Shown here one piece after another: positions 54,371 to 64,000 of a stretch of 64,000 bases of DNA (position 1 is its first letter; each line of letters opens with the position of its first letter). This stretch comes from Methanobacteriota archaeon. GTDB taxonomy: Archaea; JAADCQ01; Methanopyri; Methanopyrales; Methanopyraceae. The notes beneath the pieces are model-generated. The model had not been told where the DNA came from, ran no database searches, and saw only the letters and a program-made list of their open reading frames with translations. The stretch is taken from positions 1 through 64,000 of the forward strand of contig JAMOPO010000003.1 in the NCBI GenBank assembly GCA_027064425.1, written 5' to 3'. Made by a program: the position numbers and the translations under genes.

Positions 54371-55914
54371 GCCTTCTTCACCCGCCCGTACCCGCCGCCT
54401 CCGGCCGTTTTCACGATGAGCATGTCGCCGGGCTCCAGCACGGTCGAGTCCTTGGGCCCGAGCCGCTCGACCGAGCCGTCCGAGCGCTCCACCAAGTACT
54501 CAGCGGGCTTGCCCGGTTCCCCACCCGCGGCCCCGCGGGGCCCCTTCTCAACCCTGTCACCGAGCACCGTCACCCGGCACCGCTTCAGCGCCAGGTAGCG
54601 CCGGACGATCCCGTCACCACCCCGGCGCCGGCCGGCGCCCCCGCTCCCGCGGCGCACGGTGTATTCCATGATCCTGATCGGATACTCCCGCTCCACGTGC
54701 TCGACGGGCGTGTTGGCCGTGTTGGTCATGTACACGTGCACGGCGCTCTCCCCGTCCCGCTCCGGAGAGGCGCCGGCCCCGCCCCCGATCGTCTCGTAAT
54801 AAGCAAAGTCCGGGCCGCCGATCGCCACGTTGTTCATCGACCCGTGCGAGTGGGCAGGGAGGTCCGGGACGGCCCGCCTCAGCGCGTCCAGCACCGCGTC
54901 CACGATGCGCTGAGACGTCTCCACGTTACCCGCGCAGACGGGGGCCGGAGGGCGCGGGTTGACCACGGTCCCCTCCGGAGCCTTGACGTGGATGGGCCGG
55001 TACGCGCCCTCCGACGCGGGTGTCTCCGGGTCAAGCACCGCTTTGAGCACGAAGAACACCGCCGAGTGGGTCACCGGCAGCGGGGCGTTAACGGGCCCGT
55101 CCGCCTGCTCGCTCGTCCCGGAGAAGTCCACGGTGATCTCGTCGCCCTCGACGGTGACGGTCACCTGGATCCAGATCTCGTCCTCCGACACCCCGTCTCC
55201 CTCCAGCCGGTCCCCGCCCCGATACTTGCCGTCCGGTAGCCCCTCAATGGCCCGCCTCATGCGCCGCTCAGCGTACTCCTTCGCCCACTCGCAGGCCTCG
55301 CGGAACGCCTCAAGCCCGTGCTCCTCGATCAGCTCCTCAACCCGCTCGCACCCACGGAACGCGGCGGAGAGCTGCGCCATCAGGTCGTACCGACGCTCCC
55401 GACCCCCGCGAGAGTTGGCCTCGACCAGCCGGAGGATCTCCTCCCGGGGCTCCCCGCCCTCGGCCACCCGGACCGGTGGAATTCGCAACCCCTCCGAGTA
55501 CACGTCCTCCGCATCGTGCGGCATGCTTCCCGGGACCTTCCCACCCACGTCGGCGTGGTGCGCCCGGACGGCCGTGAACCCAACCAGCTCGTCCTCGTGG
55601 AAGATCGGGGCGATGACGGTGAGGTCGGGCAGGTGCGTGCCGCCGCGATACGGGTCGTTCAGGAGGAACGCGTCCCCGGGCTCCATTTCACCCCGGTCGA
55701 ACTCCTCTAGCACCGCCCGGACGGCCCAGCGCATGGAGCCCAGGTGCACCGGGATGTGCTCCGCCTGGGCGACGAGCTCACCGGACGCGTCGTACACGGC
55801 GCAGGAGAAGTCCTCCCGCTCCCGAATGTTGGGAGAGAACGCGCTCCGCTTCAGGTGCGCCCCCATCTCCTCGCACACGTAGATCAGACCCTGTCGAACC
55901 ACCTCACGCTTCAA
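54367..55914 (-). CDS. Hydantoinase B/oxoprolinase family subunit
   Basis: SPNIRE, IPVHLGSM, NDPY.GGTHLPD, HHADVGG, GNVETSQR, TAGGGGYG. Confidence 0.92.
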   Translation of the reverse strand: MKREVVRQGLIYVCEEMGAHLKRSAFSPNIREREDFSCAVYDASGELVAQAEHIPVHLGSMRWAVRAVLEEFDRGEMEPGDAFLLNDPYRGGTHLPDLTVIAPIFHEDELVGFTAVRAHHADVGGKVPGSMPHDAEDVYSEGLRIPPVRVAEGGEPREEILRLVEANSRGGRERRYDLMAQLSAAFRGCERVEELIEEHGLEAFREACEWAKEYAERRMRRAIEGLPDGKYRGGDRLEGDGVSEDEIWIQVTVTVEGDEITVDFSGTSEQADGPVNAPLPVTHSAVFFVLKAVLDPETPASEGAYRPIHVKAPEGTVVNPRPPAPVCAGNVETSQRIVDAVLDALRRAVPDLPAHSHGSMNNVAIGGPDFAYYETIGGGAGASPERDGESAVHVYMTNTANTPVEHVEREYPIRIMEYTVRRGSGGAGRRRGGDGIVRRYLALKRCRVTVLGDRVEKGPRGAAGGEPGKPAEYLVERSDGSVERLGPKDSTVLEPGDMLIVKTAGGGGYGRVKKA

Positions 55915-57314
55915 CCCTCCTCCCCCAGCACCGAGGATACTCCGCGGAGGAACGCCCGGCGCACGCGCTCGTAGGCGTTCACCACGCCGGGCCCAACGTG
56001 CAGCAGGACGTCCCCCTCCCGGGAGCGCTCGGCGATCTCCCGGGCCGCCTCCTCGACGGACCTCACCGCGATCCCCTCGCAGCCGGACTCCTCCGCCCCC
56101 TCTACCACCTCCCGGGCCGCGTCCATGTCGAGCCGCTCCAGCGTCTCGTTGTAGCCGCTCGCCGCTACGAAGTCCGCGTACTCACCCACGATCCGTCCGA
56201 ACTCCAGCTTATCCCGCTCGGTCACCGTGTCCGGGTTGTCCACGCTCACGAGGAGGCGACCGCCGCGCTCCTCCGCCAGCTCTCGGAACGGGGGCAGGCT
56301 GGCCTCCAGCCCCTCAGGATTGTGGGCGGCATCGATGTACGCGGCCCGGCCCGAGAAGTCACCCAGCGACTCCATCCGGCCGGGTACACCGTCGAACGTC
56401 GCGAGCCCTTCCTCCACACCCTCCGGGTCCGCGCCGAACTCCAGGCAGGCCGCGACGGCCCCGGTGCAGTTCTCGACGTAGTACCCCAGCAGCCGGAACT
56501 CCGCCTCCACCCGGTGCTCCGGCCCCTCCACCACGAGGCGCGAGTCCTCGCGGCGCCCGAGGTAGTCGGCCTCCCCGGTCCGGACGGAGTACCACACGGC
56601 CTCGTCCAGGCGCTCACGCAGCTCCCGGCAGTCGTACCCAGCCACGAGCGTCTCGCTCATGTCCACGATCGTGAGCTTCCGCCGGACGTAGCGCTCGAAC
56701 GAGCCCCCGAACTCGTCCAGGTGCTCGGGAGAGACGTTGGTCAGCACACCCACGTCGAGCCGGATGCCCGACGCGAGCCGGATCGTCCCGTGCGGCAGCT
56801 CCACGACCGCGAGGTCGTGGCCCTCGATCTCCCCGGTCACGACCCCCTCCACGATGGCCTCGATCACCAGGTGCCGGTCCAGGGAGGAGCACCGCCAGAC
56901 GTCGTACCCGCACGCCTCCAGCAGGTGCGCGATCGCCCAGGTCGTGGTCGTCTTCCCGTTCGTGCCCGTTACCCCGATGGCCGGGACCGGAAAGAGGTCG
57001 CCCAGTATCTCCGCCACGTCCCGGACCGTAACGCGCTCGGGCACCCGCTCCGCGAGCCTCCTCCCCTCCGCATCCTCCGGGATCGCGGGCGAGACGAAGG
57101 CCGCGTCCGCGGACTCGAACAGCTCCGGGTCGTGCCCGCCCAGAACCACCTCCACGCCCTCGCGCTCCAGCGTCTCGAGGTACTCGCGCTCCTCGGAGGT
57201 GAACTCGTCCTCCTCCTTGACGTCGTTGAGCACGACCTCGTACCCGACGTGGTTCAGCAGCCGGGCGACGGAGCGTCCCGCGCTCCCCGCGCCGACAACT
57301 ATAACCCGAGTCAA
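55911..57314 (-). CDS. MurD-like ligase (probably pseudomurein peptide synthesis)
   Basis: GAGSAG Rossmann motif, SPAIP, GVTGTNGKTTT, PEHLD, GRME, DAAHNP. Confidence 0.82.
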   Translation of the reverse strand: MTRVIVVGAGSAGRSVARLLNHVGYEVVLNDVKEEDEFTSEEREYLETLEREGVEVVLGGHDPELFESADAAFVSPAIPEDAEGRRLAERVPERVTVRDVAEILGDLFPVPAIGVTGTNGKTTTTWAIAHLLEACGYDVWRCSSLDRHLVIEAIVEGVVTGEIEGHDLAVVELPHGTIRLASGIRLDVGVLTNVSPEHLDEFGGSFERYVRRKLTIVDMSETLVAGYDCRELRERLDEAVWYSVRTGEADYLGRREDSRLVVEGPEHRVEAEFRLLGYYVENCTGAVAACLEFGADPEGVEEGLATFDGVPGRMESLGDFSGRAAYIDAAHNPEGLEASLPPFRELAEERGGRLLVSVDNPDTVTERDKLEFGRIVGEYADFVAASGYNETLERLDMDAAREVVEGAEESGCEGIAVRSVEEAAREIAERSREGDVLLHVGPGVVNAYERVRRAFLRGVSSVLGEEG

Positions 57315-58220: not shown

Positions 58221-59693
58221 TTACCGCCGCCGGAGGGCCGGGAGCAGCACCGCGACCAGCGCCAGCGCTGGGAACACCGGCGCCCGCTTCCTCGCCGCGA
58301 GCCCCTTCAGCGTCTCGTACTCGTGCACCCACTCCGGCAGCTTCAGCGACAAATAGTTCGCGATCACCCGGGCCACCTTCTCGACCGCCCCGGGCGCGTC
58401 CAGCAGGCCCCGCCGGACGTAGATGACGTACATGTCACCCGGCGTGTCCAGCTTGTCCGCCGGCAGCCGGTAGATCCGGGTGTTGATGTACACGACCTTT
58501 CGGTGCTCCTTGCCGTCCTGCACGTACGTGTACTTCTCCACCGCCGCCTTCGTCTCCGCGACGAGCTCCCCGGCGAAGTGCCTCAGAATGGCCTCCGGGA
58601 AGTCGTACACGTCGGGCTCGCTGCCCTCGGGCCCCTTCTCCGGGTTACCCTCGAACAGCTTCCGGTCCGTGATCCCCGTCACCGTCAGATAGGGGAACGC
58701 GATGACGTACCGGACGCCCTGGCTGTACAGGTCCTGCATCAGCTTCTTGAACTGCTCGTATCGGATCTCCCAGCGCGACCTCTCCCACTTCTCCGGCCCG
58801 ATCTCCGGGTTCTGGAAGGCGAAGTAGTATGCCTTACCGTGCCTGATGAACGGATTCTTCAGCGCCCAGTCCACCTCGCCCACCGGGATCTTCACGCCCA
58901 GCAGTTCACCGAGCCGCTCCGCCACGCCCCGGAGCGCGTACATGATGTTCGCCTTGTAATCGTCCCAGAACCCGATCCTCAGCGTGCCGAACGCGATCTC
59001 CAGCAGGCCCACCTCCTCCCTGTGCTGCCTCAGGAAGTCCAGCAGGTTCGAGCAACCCTTGAACGGGTCGCCCGGCTCGCCCCGCTGGTTGGGTCCTACC
59101 AGCGGCTTCTGCAGCTCGACCTTGACGTTCTCGAACAGCAGCTCCGGCACGATCCCCAGGCCGTCCTGCCGGTCCCAGGACGTGATACCGAACTGCTCGT
59201 ACACGAATGCGTACTGCGGCACCTTCTCCTCCTCCACCAGGACCTTCTCGATCAGCTCCGGGATCTCGATGCCCTGGTGACCACCGCCCCGGTCCAGGAA
59301 CGCCGGAAGGATCACGACCAGTCCCTTCCTACCGCGGTCCGTGAACCTAGCGGCCTGGCGCAGGGCGTACCCCATCTCCGTCTCCAACGACTCCTCCTCC
59401 ATCGTCACCGTCTCCTGATGGATCACGTACGTCTTACCGCCCTCCAGCGAGACCCTGGTTACGCCCTCCGTCTCGAACTCGCCCGGGTACACTCGGATCT
59501 CGTAGGCCTCACCGAGCGTCACCGACAGGTGCTCCTGCACCTTCTCCGGCAGCTCGTGCGCTTTGTACACCCAGTGCGGGTCGTAGCTACCGTGGTACGG
59601 CAGCACCACCGCGATCCGTAGCTTCTCCTCGTCCGCCAGCGCCGGGCCCGACAGCGCCAACAGGGCCGCGAGCAGCGCGATCACGCTCCTCAT
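58221..59693 (-). CDS. Exported, C-terminally anchored class II (CbiX/CfbA-like) chelatase-fold protein
   Basis: Signal peptide; VLPYHGSYDP and ILPAFLDRGGGHQGIEIP match the two His motifs of CbiX; tail APVFPALALVAVLLPALRRR. Confidence 0.65.
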   Translation of the reverse strand: MRSVIALLAALLALSGPALADEEKLRIAVVLPYHGSYDPHWVYKAHELPEKVQEHLSVTLGEAYEIRVYPGEFETEGVTRVSLEGGKTYVIHQETVTMEEESLETEMGYALRQAARFTDRGRKGLVVILPAFLDRGGGHQGIEIPELIEKVLVEEEKVPQYAFVYEQFGITSWDRQDGLGIVPELLFENVKVELQKPLVGPNQRGEPGDPFKGCSNLLDFLRQHREEVGLLEIAFGTLRIGFWDDYKANIMYALRGVAERLGELLGVKIPVGEVDWALKNPFIRHGKAYYFAFQNPEIGPEKWERSRWEIRYEQFKKLMQDLYSQGVRYVIAFPYLTVTGITDRKLFEGNPEKGPEGSEPDVYDFPEAILRHFAGELVAETKAAVEKYTYVQDGKEHRKVVYINTRIYRLPADKLDTPGDMYVIYVRRGLLDAPGAVEKVARVIANYLSLKLPEWVHEYETLKGLAARKRAPVFPALALVAVLLPALRRR

Positions 59694-59720
59694 CGTACGA
59701 CCCCCACGGTCGGCCCTTCA

Positions 59721-59766
59721 GAAGCTAATAAAAGGTTTAGCATTGGTTCACCGCGGTGAACTAACG
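59721..59766 (-). promoter_or_regulatory. TATA box with an adjacent perfect 16-bp palindrome
   Basis: Minus-strand AAACCTTTTATTA; GTTCACCGCGGTGAAC at 59746-59761 directly upstream. Confidence 0.65.
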
Positions 59767-59841
59767 TCAACGCCATTTTAGCAACACTAAAGAAAATCTG
59801 AGTAAGTTGGGAAGAAGCAGCGGGCCCGGCCGGCGCCGGCA

Positions 59842-61347
59842 TCACCGACGCCGGAGCCGCGCCAGCGCCAGCCCCGCCACCGTCAGAACGGGCAGCACCG
59901 GGACGATCCCTCTCTTCTTGGGCCTGGGTACGTAGTCCCAGACGTTCCTGGTGAGGCGCTCCAGGAACACCTCCGGGTGGGAGAACGCCACCGCGCAGAG
60001 GGTGGCGGCCCGCTGCGACGAGGCGGTGACGCTCATGAAGTGCTCCCGGTTGGGATACGGGAACGCGGCCAGGTCATCGTACTGCACGCACTCCCGGTAC
60101 AGCCACTCCTGCTCGGTTTCCAGCGTCGCCCCGAGCCGGTTCAGCTCGCTGATAGCCTCCTGGCCCAGCCCCAGCCGGTTGGCCAGGGCCAGCGACGTCA
60201 GCACGAGCGCCGTGTGCACGACGTAGGGGCCTCGCCCCTTCAGCCTGGTGCTGGTGTAGGCCCACCCGACCGCCTTCTTCCCGTCCACCTGCACGACCGA
60301 GGCATCGCTGTACTTGGCCGCCCAGTCCACGATCGCCTTCAGCGCACGGTTGATGCAGTCCGCCAGCCGGCGCTTGTCCAGTCCCACCTCGTCCGCGACC
60401 ATGTACGCGTAGAGCAGTCCCATCGCGATCTGGGCCTCGGAGGGTGGGGCGTACTCGGATCCCATGATCGCCGCGGCCGTCATCTTCCACAGTCCTGCGT
60501 GCTCTCCGGAGGTCTCCTGGTGCCTCTCCAGCCACTCCACCGCCCTCCGGATGGCCTCCTTGAGCTGCTCCACCGTCCGGTCACTCAGCCCGATCAGGTC
60601 CCGGTACAGGTACGCCTCGCACAGGGCCCTCAGCGCCCAACCGGTGTACAGCGGGTCCGGCGTCTTCGACCACGATCGGTTCGCACTGAACCCACCGTCC
60701 TCCAGCTGCTGGTCGAGGAGGAATCGCACGGCGGCCTGCGTGCACTTGGCCACGTCGTACCGTGATGGGCCGAGCGAGACGGTGCGGATGTTCAGCCTTA
60801 GCGCCGGGATCAGCACCTCCGACAGTATCTGGGCCGTCCGGAGCACGTGTCCCCGACCTCCCGGGAACCTCACCTTACCCTCCGTGAGCACCACCTTCCA
60901 GCCCCAGCCACCGTCCGGCTGCTGCAGCGACAGCAGCTTGGCCAGCGCGGTGGTGACCGCGGTTGCCATCCTGGACCGGTACGGCTCCGGCCACCGCTTG
61001 ACGTTCACCTCACCGCTGAGCAGGGCCGCGTAGATCGAGCTGAGCGCGGAGTACGTGCCGTAGATCACCTCACCCGACGTCTCCCACCGCGCGCGCCCGT
61101 ACTTGCCCGTCCAGTAAACGCAGTCCTTCGACGCGTGCAGTCGGATGTGGCCCGGGAGCAGGTAGTGCCTCGGGTCCTGCCTCGACTTCGCCTGCTGGGC
61201 CAGCTTCTCGGCCTCGTCCAGGGCCACCCAGTAGCGCGCGGCCTTGTCGATCACCGGGCCCCAGTCGACCGACGCCGACGCCGGCCACAGCAGGCAGCAC
61301 ACCAGCACCGGCACGGCGACCGCCGACCACCTCACGGCCTCGCTCAA
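59842..61347 (-). CDS. Exported prenyltransferase/squalene-cyclase-repeat (alpha/alpha barrel) protein with C-terminal anchor
   Basis: Signal peptide; QW-type repeats LLSLQQPDGGWG, LLDQQLEDGGF, WLERHQ; tail VPVLPVLTVAGLALARLRRR. Confidence 0.75.
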   Translation of the reverse strand: MSEAVRWSAVAVPVLVCCLLWPASASVDWGPVIDKAARYWVALDEAEKLAQQAKSRQDPRHYLLPGHIRLHASKDCVYWTGKYGRARWETSGEVIYGTYSALSSIYAALLSGEVNVKRWPEPYRSRMATAVTTALAKLLSLQQPDGGWGWKVVLTEGKVRFPGGRGHVLRTAQILSEVLIPALRLNIRTVSLGPSRYDVAKCTQAAVRFLLDQQLEDGGFSANRSWSKTPDPLYTGWALRALCEAYLYRDLIGLSDRTVEQLKEAIRRAVEWLERHQETSGEHAGLWKMTAAAIMGSEYAPPSEAQIAMGLLYAYMVADEVGLDKRRLADCINRALKAIVDWAAKYSDASVVQVDGKKAVGWAYTSTRLKGRGPYVVHTALVLTSLALANRLGLGQEAISELNRLGATLETEQEWLYRECVQYDDLAAFPYPNREHFMSVTASSQRAATLCAVAFSHPEVFLERLTRNVWDYVPRPKKRGIVPVLPVLTVAGLALARLRRR

Positions 61348-61403
61348 CCCCCTGCAAACAATATTTAGACCGCGTTGAGTTCCGCCCGGGGCGATCGGTA
61401 AAC

Positions 61404-64000
61404 TTGGCTGTAAAAGAGTTACGTTCGACTTTACCTCTCGCGGCGTTGGTGACGGCGCTCGCGGTCCTGGTCGGGGCCGCGGACGCCGCCCGGGTGCACG
61501 TGGTGCTGTTCACGAACGCGCCTCTTCCGGGGCTGAAGGAGGCGGAGCGCCAGGCCCACGCGTTCGTCAGCGTCTACCCGATCCCGAGGCAGCCCGAGGA
61601 CGCTTCGAGGATGCCCTGGGATCGGATCGTCCGGGACGTTTCCTCCGCCGATGTCGTGGTGATCGACGCGATGGGTGGCCTCCCTTCGGTCCTGATTCAC
61701 GAGCTCTCGGCCCGGATGGGCGCCCGGACGAGCGACCCCTCAGCGCTCGTGCGGTCGATCGCGCGCCGCGTTCCGGTGGTCATGCTGGTCGCGTCCAAGC
61801 CCGAGCGCTCCGTCGTTGAGATCCGAGGCGGCAGGCTGGCGAGCGTGGCGAGGGCCGGGACCGGCGTCCCGGAGGCGGTGGCCGCTCACGTCTGGCTGTG
61901 CCTGCACTCCGGCGACCCGGCGGCGCTGCTCACCTTCCTGGTCTGGGTGGCGGACCCCAGCTACCCGACCGATCGCGTGGTACCGCCCCGGCGTCTGGGC
62001 CGGGTGATGCTCTCGGTCTACGTGCCAGGGTCGGGGTACAGGTCGCTGGCGATTCGAGTGGATCCGCAGCGGTTCCACCGGTGGCTGCGAGAGCTGGAGC
62101 GCGGCGGCAAGGGCCTCCTGGTCTACGACGTGCGGCTAGCGCGCGAGCTTCCGGGTTGGGTCGTGGACGCGCTCGACTCGGCGGTGCCGCGGATGAGAGA
62201 CCTGCTGGGTGGGCTTCCGGACGACCTCGTGGTGGTCTTCACGCACGGAGTTTACGCGCTGACCCGAGTCCGCGCGGTGGTGGAGGAGCTCACCGACCGG
62301 CTGGATCGGGCGGCGAGGCGGTACGGGGTCAGGGCGGTCGCCGTCTTCTGCGGACTCGGGGTCGTGACGCCGGCTCAGGTCCTGGACGAGCTGCGCGAGC
62401 TGGGCAAGCGCGTGGAGGTAGTGGTCAGCGCCCGGGCCTTCACGCTCAACTTCCCCAGGCCGGCGGAGTACGTGCTGTCCCGGCTGGACGTTCCGCTGGT
62501 GCAGATCGTCTTCCCGTTCTCGAGCGATGAGAGGATGGCGGTCGGCAGGTACGTGAGCGAGCGGTCCGGCCCGCTGCTGGAGTGGACGTACCAGGTCCAG
62601 CTGGGCTCGGAGCGCGAGGGCGGGTTCTGGTTCCGCGTCCTGTGGCTGAACGCGCCCGAGGGGCCGAGGCTTCTCCCGGGTGCGCCGGACGACCTGGCGG
62701 GCCTGGTCGAGCGGCTGCTCAGGCTGAGAAAGCTGCCGAACCGTGACAAGCGGATCGCCCTCGTCGTGTACTGCTACCCGCCGGGACGCTCGGGGCTGGG
62801 GGCCGCGTACCTAGACGTTCCGCGGAGCCTGGTGCGGCTGCTGGCCGCGCTCGCCGGGGCCGGGTTCGACCTGGGCCCCGCGACTCGGTTCTTCTCTCGG
62901 CTATGGGCCCTGTACCGCGAGAGCCCGGAGAAGGCGAGGCTGCTGGAGAAGGCGCTCTCAACGGTCTTCGGGCTGCTCGCCGCCGGAGTGGATCCGCACC
63001 GTCCCGAGCGCTCGGTGGCGCTGCTGGTGAACGTGGGTCCGTGGAGCGGGCCGGAGCTGAGGAGGATCGTGAGCCTGTACCGGGGCGCTCGCGGGGAGTG
63101 GTCCACCGTCGTGGACGGCGTCCCGGTGCGGGTCATCGTTGATCGCGGCCTGATCACCGTGAGGATCGGCGACCTAGAGTTCACGCTGGGCCGCGTCTCA
63201 TCGGATCAGCTGGTGCCGGCCGATCGAGTGAAGGAGTGGTTCCGAGAGGACGTGCTCCGTCGGCTGAAGGCGTACCTGGACCTGGTGCGCGAGTGCAACC
63301 CCGCCGCCTACGAGCGGGCGCGCCGAGCCATTGAGGGCATGCTGAGGGCCTTCCGAGAGACCTGGGGTCCGGCCACCTCCAACCGCGGGCTGATGATCTG
63401 CGACGGGCACTACCTGGTCCCGGCCCTGGTGATAGGGAAGGTTGCGATCGTGCTGCAGCCGCCCCGGGGCTGGTCCGCCACCTCCACCGTCTACCACTCC
63501 CGAACCCTGCCACCGCACTGGCAGTACATCGCCGCGTACGAGTGGATACGGCGCGTGTTCCGGGCGGACGCGGTGGTTTACGTGGGCACCCACGGCACGT
63601 TCGAGTTCCTGCCCGGGCACGACCGCGGCCTGACGGTCACGGACTGGACGCACCTCCTCCTGCCCGACGTCCCGCAGGCCTACTTCTACATCGTCAGCAA
63701 TCCCGGCGAGGCCCTCCTGGCCAAGTACCGGGCGGGAGCCGTGCTGCTGACGTACCCCTCCCCGCCCACCGGGTACTTCCGGGACTACCGGCGGTACGCG
63801 GAGCTGGAGCGGCTCTGGTCCGAGTACGTTGCGTCCTCGGCCTACGGAGGATATCCGGCCGTCCAGCGTGAGATCCTGAGGAAGATCGTTGAGGAGGCCC
63901 GGAGGCTCGGGCTGCTGGACGAGATCGTGCGCGCGATCTTCCGGGAGCGCGGGCAGGCCCCACCGCCGGATCCGGTTCGGTGGGCGATGGAGCACCCGGA
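61404..64000 (+). CDS. CobN/ChlH-family chelatase with an N-terminal signal peptide (truncated by the window; absent from the ORF track)
   Basis: Open frame from TTG 61404: LPLAALVTALAVLVGAADAA; LRKLPNRDKRIALVVYCYPPG, GAAYLDVPRSL, LQPPRG, PPHWQYIAAYEW, GTHGTFEFLPG, NPGEALLAKYR. Confidence 0.88.
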   Translation, partial: MAVKELRSTLPLAALVTALAVLVGAADAARVHVVLFTNAPLPGLKEAERQAHAFVSVYPIPRQPEDASRMPWDRIVRDVSSADVVVIDAMGGLPSVLIHELSARMGARTSDPSALVRSIARRVPVVMLVASKPERSVVEIRGGRLASVARAGTGVPEAVAAHVWLCLHSGDPAALLTFLVWVADPSYPTDRVVPPRRLGRVMLSVYVPGSGYRSLAIRVDPQRFHRWLRELERGGKGLLVYDVRLARELPGWVVDALDSAVPRMRDLLGGLPDDLVVVFTHGVYALTRVRAVVEELTDRLDRAARRYGVRAVAVFCGLGVVTPAQVLDELRELGKRVEVVVSARAFTLNFPRPAEYVLSRLDVPLVQIVFPFSSDERMAVGRYVSERSGPLLEWTYQVQLGSEREGGFWFRVLWLNAPEGPRLLPGAPDDLAGLVERLLRLRKLPNRDKRIALVVYCYPPGRSGLGAAYLDVPRSLVRLLAALAGAGFDLGPATRFFSRLWALYRESPEKARLLEKALSTVFGLLAAGVDPHRPERSVALLVNVGPWSGPELRRIVSLYRGARGEWSTVVDGVPVRVIVDRGLITVRIGDLEFTLGRVSSDQLVPADRVKEWFREDVLRRLKAYLDLVRECNPAAYERARRAIEGMLRAFRETWGPATSNRGLMICDGHYLVPALVIGKVAIVLQPPRGWSATSTVYHSRTLPPHWQYIAAYEWIRRVFRADAVVYVGTHGTFEFLPGHDRGLTVTDWTHLLLPDVPQAYFYIVSNPGEALLAKYRAGAVLLTYPSPPTGYFRDYRRYAELERLWSEYVASSAYGGYPAVQREILRKIVEEARRLGLLDEIVRAIFRERGQAPPPDPVRWAMEHP

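Follow-up and report, generated by a model that had tools for sequence, protein, structure and literature searches.

This work concerns three adjacent genes at the end of a 64,000-nucleotide stretch of archaeal DNA, called the window here. The window is the first 64 kb of the 164.6-kb contig C3 in a genome of 1.54 Mb on 57 contigs, and the closest named relatives of its proteins come from Methanopyrus. The source organism is of a heat-loving, methane-producing type. From the sequence alone, the original prediction had described at this place an exported protein with the histidine motifs of CbiX/CfbA, a QW-repeat alpha/alpha-barrel protein and a divergently transcribed CobN/ChlH-type subunit. 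It had read the three as a candidate cell-surface system that captures a tetrapyrrole and strips or exchanges its metal. The observation is confirmed by our analysis and the interpretation is partly supported. Calling of open reading frames (ORFs) places gene A (490 residues) at 58221..59693 and gene B (501 residues) at 59842..61347, both on the minus strand. The third gene, for a protein of the CobN/ChlH/HmuS superfamily, starts 56 base pairs (bp) from B on the opposite strand. It is still open at the window end, with its first 865 residues encoded up to position 64000, and runs on C3 from 61404 to 66806 for a total of 1800 residues. The divergent spacer that separates B from the CobN-like gene (61348..61403) contains an AT-rich, TATA-like stretch, AACAATATTTAGA, as read from the sequence.

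Gene A keeps both histidine motifs of the CbiX/CfbA type. The first, HGS at residues 34-36 (59586..59594, minus strand), carries the catalytic-type histidine H34. The second, PAFLDRGGGHQGIEIP at residues 130-145 (59259..59306, minus strand), runs from P130 to P145 and carries the second catalytic-type histidine H139. H34 and H139 are present in 11 of the 11 orthologues that cover them. By BLASTP, the two motifs align with the equivalent motifs of the canonical CfbA/CbiX encoded in the same genome, a match that is weak when taken alone (E 0.036 and 0.15). This canonical protein has 158 residues and scores 108 bits (C57:78715-79191, L013:1477-1953); it also has a long His/Asp-rich insert containing HHHDHGHDHDHDHDHHGHDH after its second catalytic motif. 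Family models recognise gene A poorly. Against Pfam CbiX (PF01903) the protein scores 17.1 bits, which is below the cut-off of 22; the match covers residues 124-156 around the second motif, and a precomputed PF01903 match is found for 3 of the 12 members of the A family. A search against NCBIfam gave no match, and a profile search of the Protein Data Bank (PDB) with the A family found no chelatase, its only match being spurious at E 0.9. The fold is recognisable from the structural model alone.

The AlphaFold model of A, built from a 12-sequence alignment, has a mean predicted local distance difference test score (pLDDT) of 84 and a predicted template modelling score of 0.83. We compared the models of A and B with 48,161 representative chains by VIA-align. 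For A, the seven best chains of the 48,161 are all class II chelatases (Z 16.8-12.9, 221-272 residues aligned), as expected from the original prediction. They are CpfC/HemH (9KTA, Z 16.8), SirB (5ZT7, Z 16.1, 245/254 residues), yeast ferrochelatase (Z 15.7), FetB (9B86, Z 14.5), periplasmic CbiK (2XVX, Z 14.3), CbiK (2XWP, Z 14.2) and CbiX (4CCS, Z 12.9). The next tier consists of periplasmic-binding and LacI folds at Z 9.3 or lower, and the best Foldseek match is a ferrochelatase with a probability of 1.0. Identity to the two-lobed chelatases is 10-16%, and it reaches 27% between the N-terminal lobe and CfbA (6M25; 106 residues, Z 9.5). The layout is that of two lobes as in SirB or the long CbiX form, with insertions that add about 180 residues compared with ordinary chelatases. 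The C-terminal lobe lacks a histidine pair and has an invariant loop, TVTGITDRxLFEGNP.

Gene A thus shares the HGS and PxFLxxGxxH motifs with SirB and with CfbA and the small CbiX form, the cytoplasmic nickel, cobalt and iron sirohydrochlorin chelatases. It differs from them in its predicted export and membrane anchor, in its score under the Pfam CbiX cut-off, in the C-terminal lobe without histidines and in its own invariant loop. A class II chelatase fold outside the cytoplasm is also found in FetB/IhtB of Porphyromonas gingivalis and in periplasmic CbiK of Desulfovibrio vulgaris, the placement of A being predicted. In CbiK-type proteins the histidine pair is located in the C-terminal lobe. 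Unlike FetB and CbiK, A has its pair in the N-terminal lobe, as do SirB, CbiX and CfbA, has nearly double the length and ends in a C-terminal membrane tail. FetB is an outer-membrane CbiK homologue that inserts cobalt and manganese into porphyrin in vitro (PMC13065792), so a class II chelatase can be active outside the cytoplasm. From the model, A seems to be an exported, enlarged chelatase of the SirB/CbiX-long type in which the active-site histidine pair is preserved; metal insertion by this protein is a prediction at most. The family is small: searches recovered 12 members from 5.8 billion clusters and 4 from 1.84 billion representatives, and all named members are from Methanopyrus-type archaea. 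By tblastn, there is no paralogue of A in the genome.

Gene B was modelled with a pLDDT of 88 as an (alpha/alpha)6 toroid of the prenyltransferase/squalene-cyclase repeat kind, which bears out the QW-repeat barrel that had been read from the sequence. Its score against Pfam SQHop_cyclase_C is 21 bits, below the cut-off of 26.1, and two B paralogues pass this cut-off with 49.4 and 40.8 bits. The nearest chain to the model is drimenyl-diphosphate synthase (Z 26.3, 21% identity), followed by squalene-hopene cyclase (Z 25.5). Glycoside hydrolases, epimerases and complement thioester domains score slightly below the terpene cyclases, many of the glycoside hydrolases at Z 24-26. The QxxDGGW motif occurs once in B and three times in its paralogues. 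Class II terpene cyclases and the beta-gamma domains of squalene-hopene cyclase have this fold and the QW-like repeat as well. B differs from these enzymes in its predicted export and in being a single toroid, and a pattern search found no DxDD motif in B or in three of its paralogues. The original prediction had also invoked the corrinoid-binding barrel of transcobalamin. This analogy turns out to be weak: the (alpha/alpha)6 toroid is shared with haptocorrin and transcobalamin, but haptocorrin (4KKJ) reaches Z 19.4 and rank 48 in the best 50 rows, and there is no Cobalamin_bind match for B at E ≤ 0.1. Look-alikes of B in Protein Atlas (best score 0.87, to be taken as a lead only) belong to the same toroid families. 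Prediction of a complex between residues 27-560 of the CobN-like protein and residues 26-478 of B gave a score of 0.00 and a mark of 0.32, which amounts to no verdict and covers only the N-terminal third of the CobN-like protein.

The large protein is of the CobN/ChlH type, as had been proposed. It matches PF02514 with E 8.5e-157 over residues 295-1497, covering model positions 88-1089 of 1090. Its sequence matches in the PDB are CobN (4.9e-68), ChlH (1e-64) and HmuS (1.9e-55). Against the NCBIfam equivalogs for CobN and BchH it scores far under the cut-off, for example 176 versus 1248. The layout comprises a signal-like N-terminus, an N-terminal extension, the CobN body, a stretch of about 200 residues rich in Pro, Ser, Thr and Arg, and a C-terminal transmembrane helix followed by basic residues. 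Across the superfamily, the motif HFG(T/A)HG carries a second histidine, His-538 in HmuS, that is essential for dechelation (PMC12583661). In the CobN-like protein the motif reads YVGTHG, and this second histidine is kept as His730 within VGTHGT (residues 727-732, 63582..63599, plus strand). His730 is invariant across the four exported paralogues that were aligned.

All three proteins have a hydrophobic, signal-like N-terminus and a C-terminal hydrophobic helix. In A, the N-terminal segment comprises residues 1-21 (59631..59693, minus strand; …LSGPALA/DEE), has a hydropathy of 1.85 over residues 3-21 and is conserved in orthologues. In B it comprises residues 1-26 (61270..61347, minus strand). 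In the CobN-like protein the values are 2.01 (residues 8-26) and 2.04 (residues 1771-1789). The signal peptides of the original prediction are consistent with these N-termini, the basis of the call being hydropathy and the appearance of the N-termini; the C-terminal helices, which it had not mentioned, come in addition. Since both ends look signal-like or anchor-like, export of the trio is proposed, and the three proteins look extracytoplasmic and membrane-anchored.

The tails of A and B share a pattern: K/R-x-P-V-x-P, about 14 hydrophobic residues and RRR. In A (residues 470-490, 58224..58286, minus strand) KRAPVFP precedes the helix and RRR, a putative anchor or archaeosortase-type sorting signal. 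In B (residues 481-501, 59845..59907, minus strand; hydropathy and pattern search) the corresponding start is IVPVLPV. The PVxP-helix-RRR tail is found in 14 of the 3111 ORFs of at least 150 residues in the genome, and 11 of the 14 lie within CobN-like modules. Further carriers are encoded at C15:82167-84059, C15:215037-216782, C15:333205-334581, C57:152222-154897, C15:382784-383953 and C52:203597-204505, and on contigs C55, C9, C10 and C43. The genome also has an ORF of the exosortase/archaeosortase family (C57:74023-74508; TIGR04178, 41.3 bits versus a cut-off of 23). The sorting-domain models of NCBIfam gave no match to A or B. Given the rarity of the tail and the presence of an archaeosortase-family gene, the tail, tripartite in appearance, may be a dedicated sorting signal of the archaeosortase/exosortase type.

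The trio is one member of a paralogous set. The genome contains about seven CobN-like genes. Two are of the cytoplasmic type (C15:261189-264704 and a split copy on C26). Five are of the exported type, located on C3 (the window gene), at C15:85670-91192, C15:216803-223174 and C57:147772-152127, and, frameshifted, at C15:327107-333188; a partial exported-type copy is found on C55. Every exported CobN-like gene has a B-like toroid gene as its neighbour, in divergent orientation or immediately upstream, which results in five or six modules of a CobN-like protein and a toroid. Kinship of the two most divergent B-like proteins was recovered by hhalign with probabilities of 87.9% and 97.3%. One module on C15 has a similarly short divergent spacer of 53 bp, again with an AT-rich stretch; the spacer of the C57 module is 94 bp, and the start of the B-like gene on C55 is uncertain. 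The third gene varies by module: A is found only here, and proteins of 469, 630/662 or 961 residues, some with coiled coils, take its place elsewhere. Kinship of A to the 469-, 630- and 961-residue proteins was tried and rejected (hhalign probabilities 4.8%, 22% and 0.8%, from the signal peptide or tail only), as was a relation between the A profile and the CobN-like alignment (0.9%, likewise a signal peptide or tail match).

Some of these copies are irregular. The exported-type copy at C15:327107-333188 consists of two overlapping ORFs (1209 and 1233 residues) and has no GxHG motif. The cytoplasmic-type CobN on C26 (28882-32281) is split into two parts that lie on opposite strands, and one of the matches contains a TAG. 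Both split genes may be pseudogenes, inversions or assembly faults. The small contigs C9, C10, C43 and C55 carry near-copies of a pair composed of a B-like toroid and a coiled-coil protein of 600-660 residues; these near-copies could represent collapsed repeats or the versions of a single module in different strains.

The phylum-level search covered six Methanopyrus genomes. B-like genes are present in all six. A is present in five, always directly after B, and was not found in one genome of 94% completeness. In two complete Methanopyrus genomes the gene order is kept: family-B DNA polymerase, radical-SAM protein, CobN-like gene, divergent B, A, a hypothetical gene and the MurD-like ligase. 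Between Methanopyrus genomes (window versus L138 and L139) the surface trio is 53-67% identical and the flanks are 73-84% identical, so that the exported trio diverges faster than the flanking housekeeping genes. In the complete genome of L139 (G001:C1:999001-1016000), the orthologues of B (with one TGA), of the CobN-like gene, of the radical-SAM gene and of a 272-residue gene match in two frames or pieces, which we take as frameshifts or sequencing errors.

For the wider distribution we used an alignment of four exported paralogues to scan prokaryotic genomes, each species being represented once, and obtained 80 loci; the archaeal spread beyond Methanopyrus was assessed from these loci and from five genomes. 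The largest ORF of each locus was classed by a strongly hydrophobic 15-residue window in its last 50 residues. By this criterion 29 ORFs have a C-terminal transmembrane helix, 43 have none and 8 are truncated at the end of a contig. We built local profiles from Pfam-verified examples of DUF2162, MotA/ExbB and DUF2149, with four to five of the positive loci supplying the seeds. At least one of the three families occurs at 25 of the 29 loci with the helix, at 2 of the 43 without it and at 2 of the 8 with cut ORFs. The Pfam-checked bacterial loci, from Desulfobacterota and Planctomycetota, encode a TonB-dependent receptor, DUF2162, MotA/ExbB, DUF2149 and the CobN-like protein, and they often carry a fusion of a periplasmic-binding protein (BtuF) with CbiZ. 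Neighbours resembling A or B were absent from the 80 loci except for a B-like gene in one Methanopyri genome.

The layout of the bacterial loci is that of the hmuRSTUV genes of Bacteroidota. The hmu table for P. gingivalis in PMC11681262 lists HmuS as a CobN subunit, HmuT as hypothetical, HmuU as MotA/TolQ/ExbB and HmuV as DUF2149. From its place in the bacterial loci, HmuT would be a member of DUF2162. The present genome has exactly one DUF2162-MotA/ExbB-DUF2149 operon (C27:24372-26551, L130:7372-9551). A look for MotA/TolQ-like genes past position 64000 had been suggested; there are none at that place, but the genome does have them in this unlinked operon. The operon lies between a superfamily-1 helicase and a methyltransferase, and its DUF2162 protein is extended at the N-terminus by about 147 residues. 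Each of the six Methanopyrus genomes has a single copy of DUF2149. In a Methanobacteriaceae genome, a gene for an exported CobN-like protein of 1787 residues is followed directly by DUF2162, MotA/ExbB and DUF2149, and none of the ORFs called on this 20-kb locus is a TonB-dependent receptor. Among the five archaeal genomes, DUF2162 is found in 0 of 3 with a match of the cytoplasmic CobN type and in 2 of 2 with the exported type. A second exported CobN-like protein of Methanobacteriaceae (L050:4910-13405, 1615 residues) has a CarboxypepD_reg-like domain; the L050 CobN-like gene is divergent from FeoB and a DtxR-type iron-dependent repressor, and a ChlI-like gene is nearby.

A FastTree phylogeny was calculated from 74 proteins, to which 68 of the 80 loci contributed along with another archaeal gene and five genes of this genome; incomplete ORFs, ORFs below 1100 residues and the loci L052, L055 and L120 were left out. 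A branch with a Shimodaira-Hasegawa-like support of 100 splits 34 anchored or exported rows from 40 rows of the cytoplasmic type. The anchored side holds 29 anchored proteins, four exported paralogues including the window protein, and a Methanopyri orthologue. The other side holds 39 non-anchored proteins and the genome's own cytoplasmic CobN. The exported CobN-like proteins thus group with bacterial membrane-anchored CobN-like proteins and not with cytoplasmic CobN, which agrees with the link to the HmuS kind that had been drawn from the sequence. The anchored proteins of Desulfobacterota, Planctomycetota and Acidobacteriota share the C-terminal transmembrane helix and the side of the supported branch with the window protein. 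They differ in their length of about 1300 residues and in their placement in one operon with transport and corrinoid-linked genes, and a search for toroid or A-like neighbours found none at 79 of the 80 loci.

Gut bacteria take iron out of heme with HmuS, a de-chelatase that is bound to the membrane and dependent on NADH, has single predicted helices at both ends and is predicted to be periplasmic (PMC12583661); its reference structure is that of Bacteroides thetaiotaomicron (9D26). BtuS1/2 of Bacteroides fragilis are likewise CobN-like and predicted to be periplasmic and anchored (PMC6460266). With HmuS and BtuS, the CobN-like protein of the window shares the PF02514 superfamily, the essential histidine of GxHG, hydrophobic helices at both ends and a body predicted to lie outside the cytoplasm. 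A further parallel to HmuS is that the genome encodes DUF2162, MotA/ExbB and DUF2149 proteins, here on another contig. HmuS itself is also marked by a Met-79/His-254 heme site between head and neck and by a methionine-rich insertion. Other features differ from HmuS. The host is an archaeon without an outer membrane, the locus has no TonB-dependent receptor and no HmuY, and the partner genes are unlinked. The protein has 1800 residues with an N-terminal extension and a low-complexity stalk, and its second axial histidine is replaced by aspartate. Toroid and class II chelatase partners are found here, and neither occurs in the hmu operon table of PMC11681262 or in the bacterial loci that we sampled.

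We propose, tentatively and at somewhat less than an even chance, that the trio is an HmuS-type system that handles metals or tetrapyrroles outside the cytoplasm and is one of several paralogous Methanopyrus modules. The CobN-like core would be secreted and probably anchored to the outside of the membrane by its C-terminal helix and the long flexible stalk. By analogy, its body could serve as a large chamber for binding and chelation or dechelation. B would be a recurring exported partner, perhaps a holder of the ligand, and A may act as a second, ATP-independent chelatase of the SirB/CbiX kind with its catalytic histidine pair. Together the three might act on a metal and a tetrapyrrole, either by removal as in HmuS or by insertion or exchange as in the surface chelatase FetB. 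The unlinked DUF2162-MotA/ExbB-DUF2149 operon could supply membrane passage and possibly energy. Cytoplasmic CobN needs an AAA+ ATPase (ChlI/ChlD, CobS/CobT). No ChlI/ChlD-type gene of the Mg_chelatase family is present at the locus, the closest PF01078 match on the contig being at C3:94269, and the lack of an ATP supply that the original prediction had presumed holds for the locus. Proton-motive force may take the place of the ATPase. As substrates, nickel or cobalt tetrapyrroles or corrinoids would be favoured over heme, and the BtuF-CbiZ neighbours of the bacterial relatives suggest corrinoids by analogy.

Several points weigh against this proposal. The first histidine of HFG(T/A)HG is a tyrosine in the CobN-like protein. 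The HmuS-family marker LSLDHxxEFMGG, which carries the opposite axial His-1209 (PMC12583661), reads IDVNDYYSWAGG, with His-1209 changed to Asp and Glu-1212 to Ser, a correspondence set by motif position and not by a full HmuS alignment. The protein is thus HmuS-like in topology but lacks one HmuS-defining feature, the intact motif around the second axial histidine; both motifs are complete in the cytoplasmic CobN of the genome, as HFGTHG and DLDHYYEFLGG. The phylogeny was made by FastTree only, has two paralogues on long branches and contains no Bacteroidota HmuS among its rows. The HmuT/U/V-like genes are unlinked and single, compared with five or six CobN-like modules. Near the locus there is no gene for a tetrapyrrole-binding protein and none for an ABC transporter, which had been considered as a possible neighbour. 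Because a cytoplasmic CfbA/CbiX and a cytoplasmic CobN are also encoded in the genome, there is no obvious need for salvage. A and B are found only in Methanopyrus-type genomes, and their roles are therefore unreadable from other lineages. The fold of B is common to many unrelated enzymes, so that the fold alone points to no ligand. Mutants of BtuS1/2 in B. fragilis still dechelate heme (PMC6460266), and hence not every family member need be a catalyst. For the trio itself, the ligand, the metal and the direction of the reaction are predictions at most.

A more specific proposal can be made for the energy source. Archaea have no outer membrane. A cassette of CobN-like protein, DUF2162, ExbB and DUF2149 in such organisms would therefore not serve merely to energise a receptor, and this suggests that the ExbB-like channel serves the CobN-like protein itself. 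In the bacterial model, HmuU/V are assumed to energise the outer-membrane receptor (PMC12583661). Exported CobN-like proteins might then be driven by a MotA/ExbB-DUF2149 proton channel and not by an AAA+ ATPase, with one toroid per module that holds or delivers the tetrapyrrole and, at this locus, a surface chelatase, the result being nickel or cobalt loading or unloading on a tetrapyrrole outside the cell. Methanopyrus would have expanded such a system into five or six surface modules. We put this forward as a long shot, on the ground that the cassette exists in archaea without an outer membrane or a TonB-dependent receptor. If true, it would amount to tetrapyrrole-based acquisition of trace metals in a vent methanogen.

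The alternative that survives best is the capture of free Ni(II) or Co(II), in which the proteins would be surface metallochaperones that hand ions to a membrane transporter and no tetrapyrrole is involved. The change of the axial site from His/His to His/Asp gives a ligand set like that for a metal ion, Pfam names DUF2162 a predicted transporter, and the exported CobN-like gene of Methanobacteriaceae lies divergent from FeoB and a DtxR-type repressor. In Methanothermobacter marburgensis, CobN1 and candidate transporters are up under nickel limitation (PMC12350162), a relevant case if CobN1 is an exported form. Against ion capture stands that both protein families are known solely as tetrapyrrole enzymes or binders, and that bacterial members of the clade sit with heme or corrinoid genes, namely TonB-dependent receptors and BtuF-CbiZ fusions. 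We consider ion capture rather unlikely, with roughly one chance in a few.

The trio could also be a cell-envelope scaffold of structural or adhesive surface proteins that have kept chelatase-like folds without catalysis. The five or six fast-diverging modules would fit such a role, as would the long low-complexity stalk of the CobN-like protein, the coiled coils in the accessory proteins, the shared sorting-type tail together with the archaeosortase-family gene, and the paralogue that lacks GxHG. The conservation of H34 and H139 in A and of His730 in the CobN-like protein, in spite of the fast divergence, and the close association of the family with HmuT/U/V-like genes in other lineages make the scaffold improbable. 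Ordinary cytoplasmic biosynthesis, with A as CfbA/CbiX and the large protein as CobN of F430 or cobamide synthesis, has the family names in its favour and is hardly credible in view of the signal-like N-termini and C-terminal anchors, the separate canonical CfbA/CbiX (108 bits) and full-motif cytoplasmic CobN, the low equivalog scores and the missing ChlI/ChlD-type gene.

Bacteria are already known to export CobN-like proteins (HmuS, BtuS) as well as class II chelatases (FetB, periplasmic CbiK). A literature search, with subscription journals outside its scope, found no paper that describes the archaeal arrangement. Within that scope, this arrangement appears undescribed, and so do the obligatory toroid partner, the co-occurrence of the two chelatase classes in a single exported locus, the common sorting-type tail and the receptor-less cassette. 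The authors of the HmuS study call the role of many archaeal HmuS/CobN/ChlH homologues unclear (PMC12583661, 2025). The locus gives this question a concrete shape through an exported and anchored type, its co-occurrence with DUF2162, ExbB and DUF2149, and two further partners. If the function is acquisition of a metal or cofactor, it is relevant to the way in which methanogens acquire nickel and cobalt, metals that limit methanogenesis.

The surroundings of the trio seem unrelated to it, as judged by a family scan. The upstream flank encodes an Elp3-like radical-SAM protein, an amidohydrolase, a hydantoinase B, a MurD-like ligase and a 272-residue protein without a family; the downstream flank encodes a radical-SAM protein and a family-B DNA polymerase. 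Sequencing datasets that contain the locus comprise five DNA sets from two studies, with no RNA set listed. A perfect 16-bp palindrome, GTTCACCGCGGTGAAC, is located at 59746-59761, 53-68 bp upstream of gene A, and is unique in the genome at up to one mismatch. We do not treat it as an operator, because the same spacer of three other Methanopyrus genomes lacks it. Two genes from A, at window positions 55911-57314, the MurD-like protein has the N-terminal, middle and C-terminal domains of a Mur ligase and is a candidate wall-peptide ligase of a pseudomurein-walled methanogen, not a tetrapyrrole enzyme.

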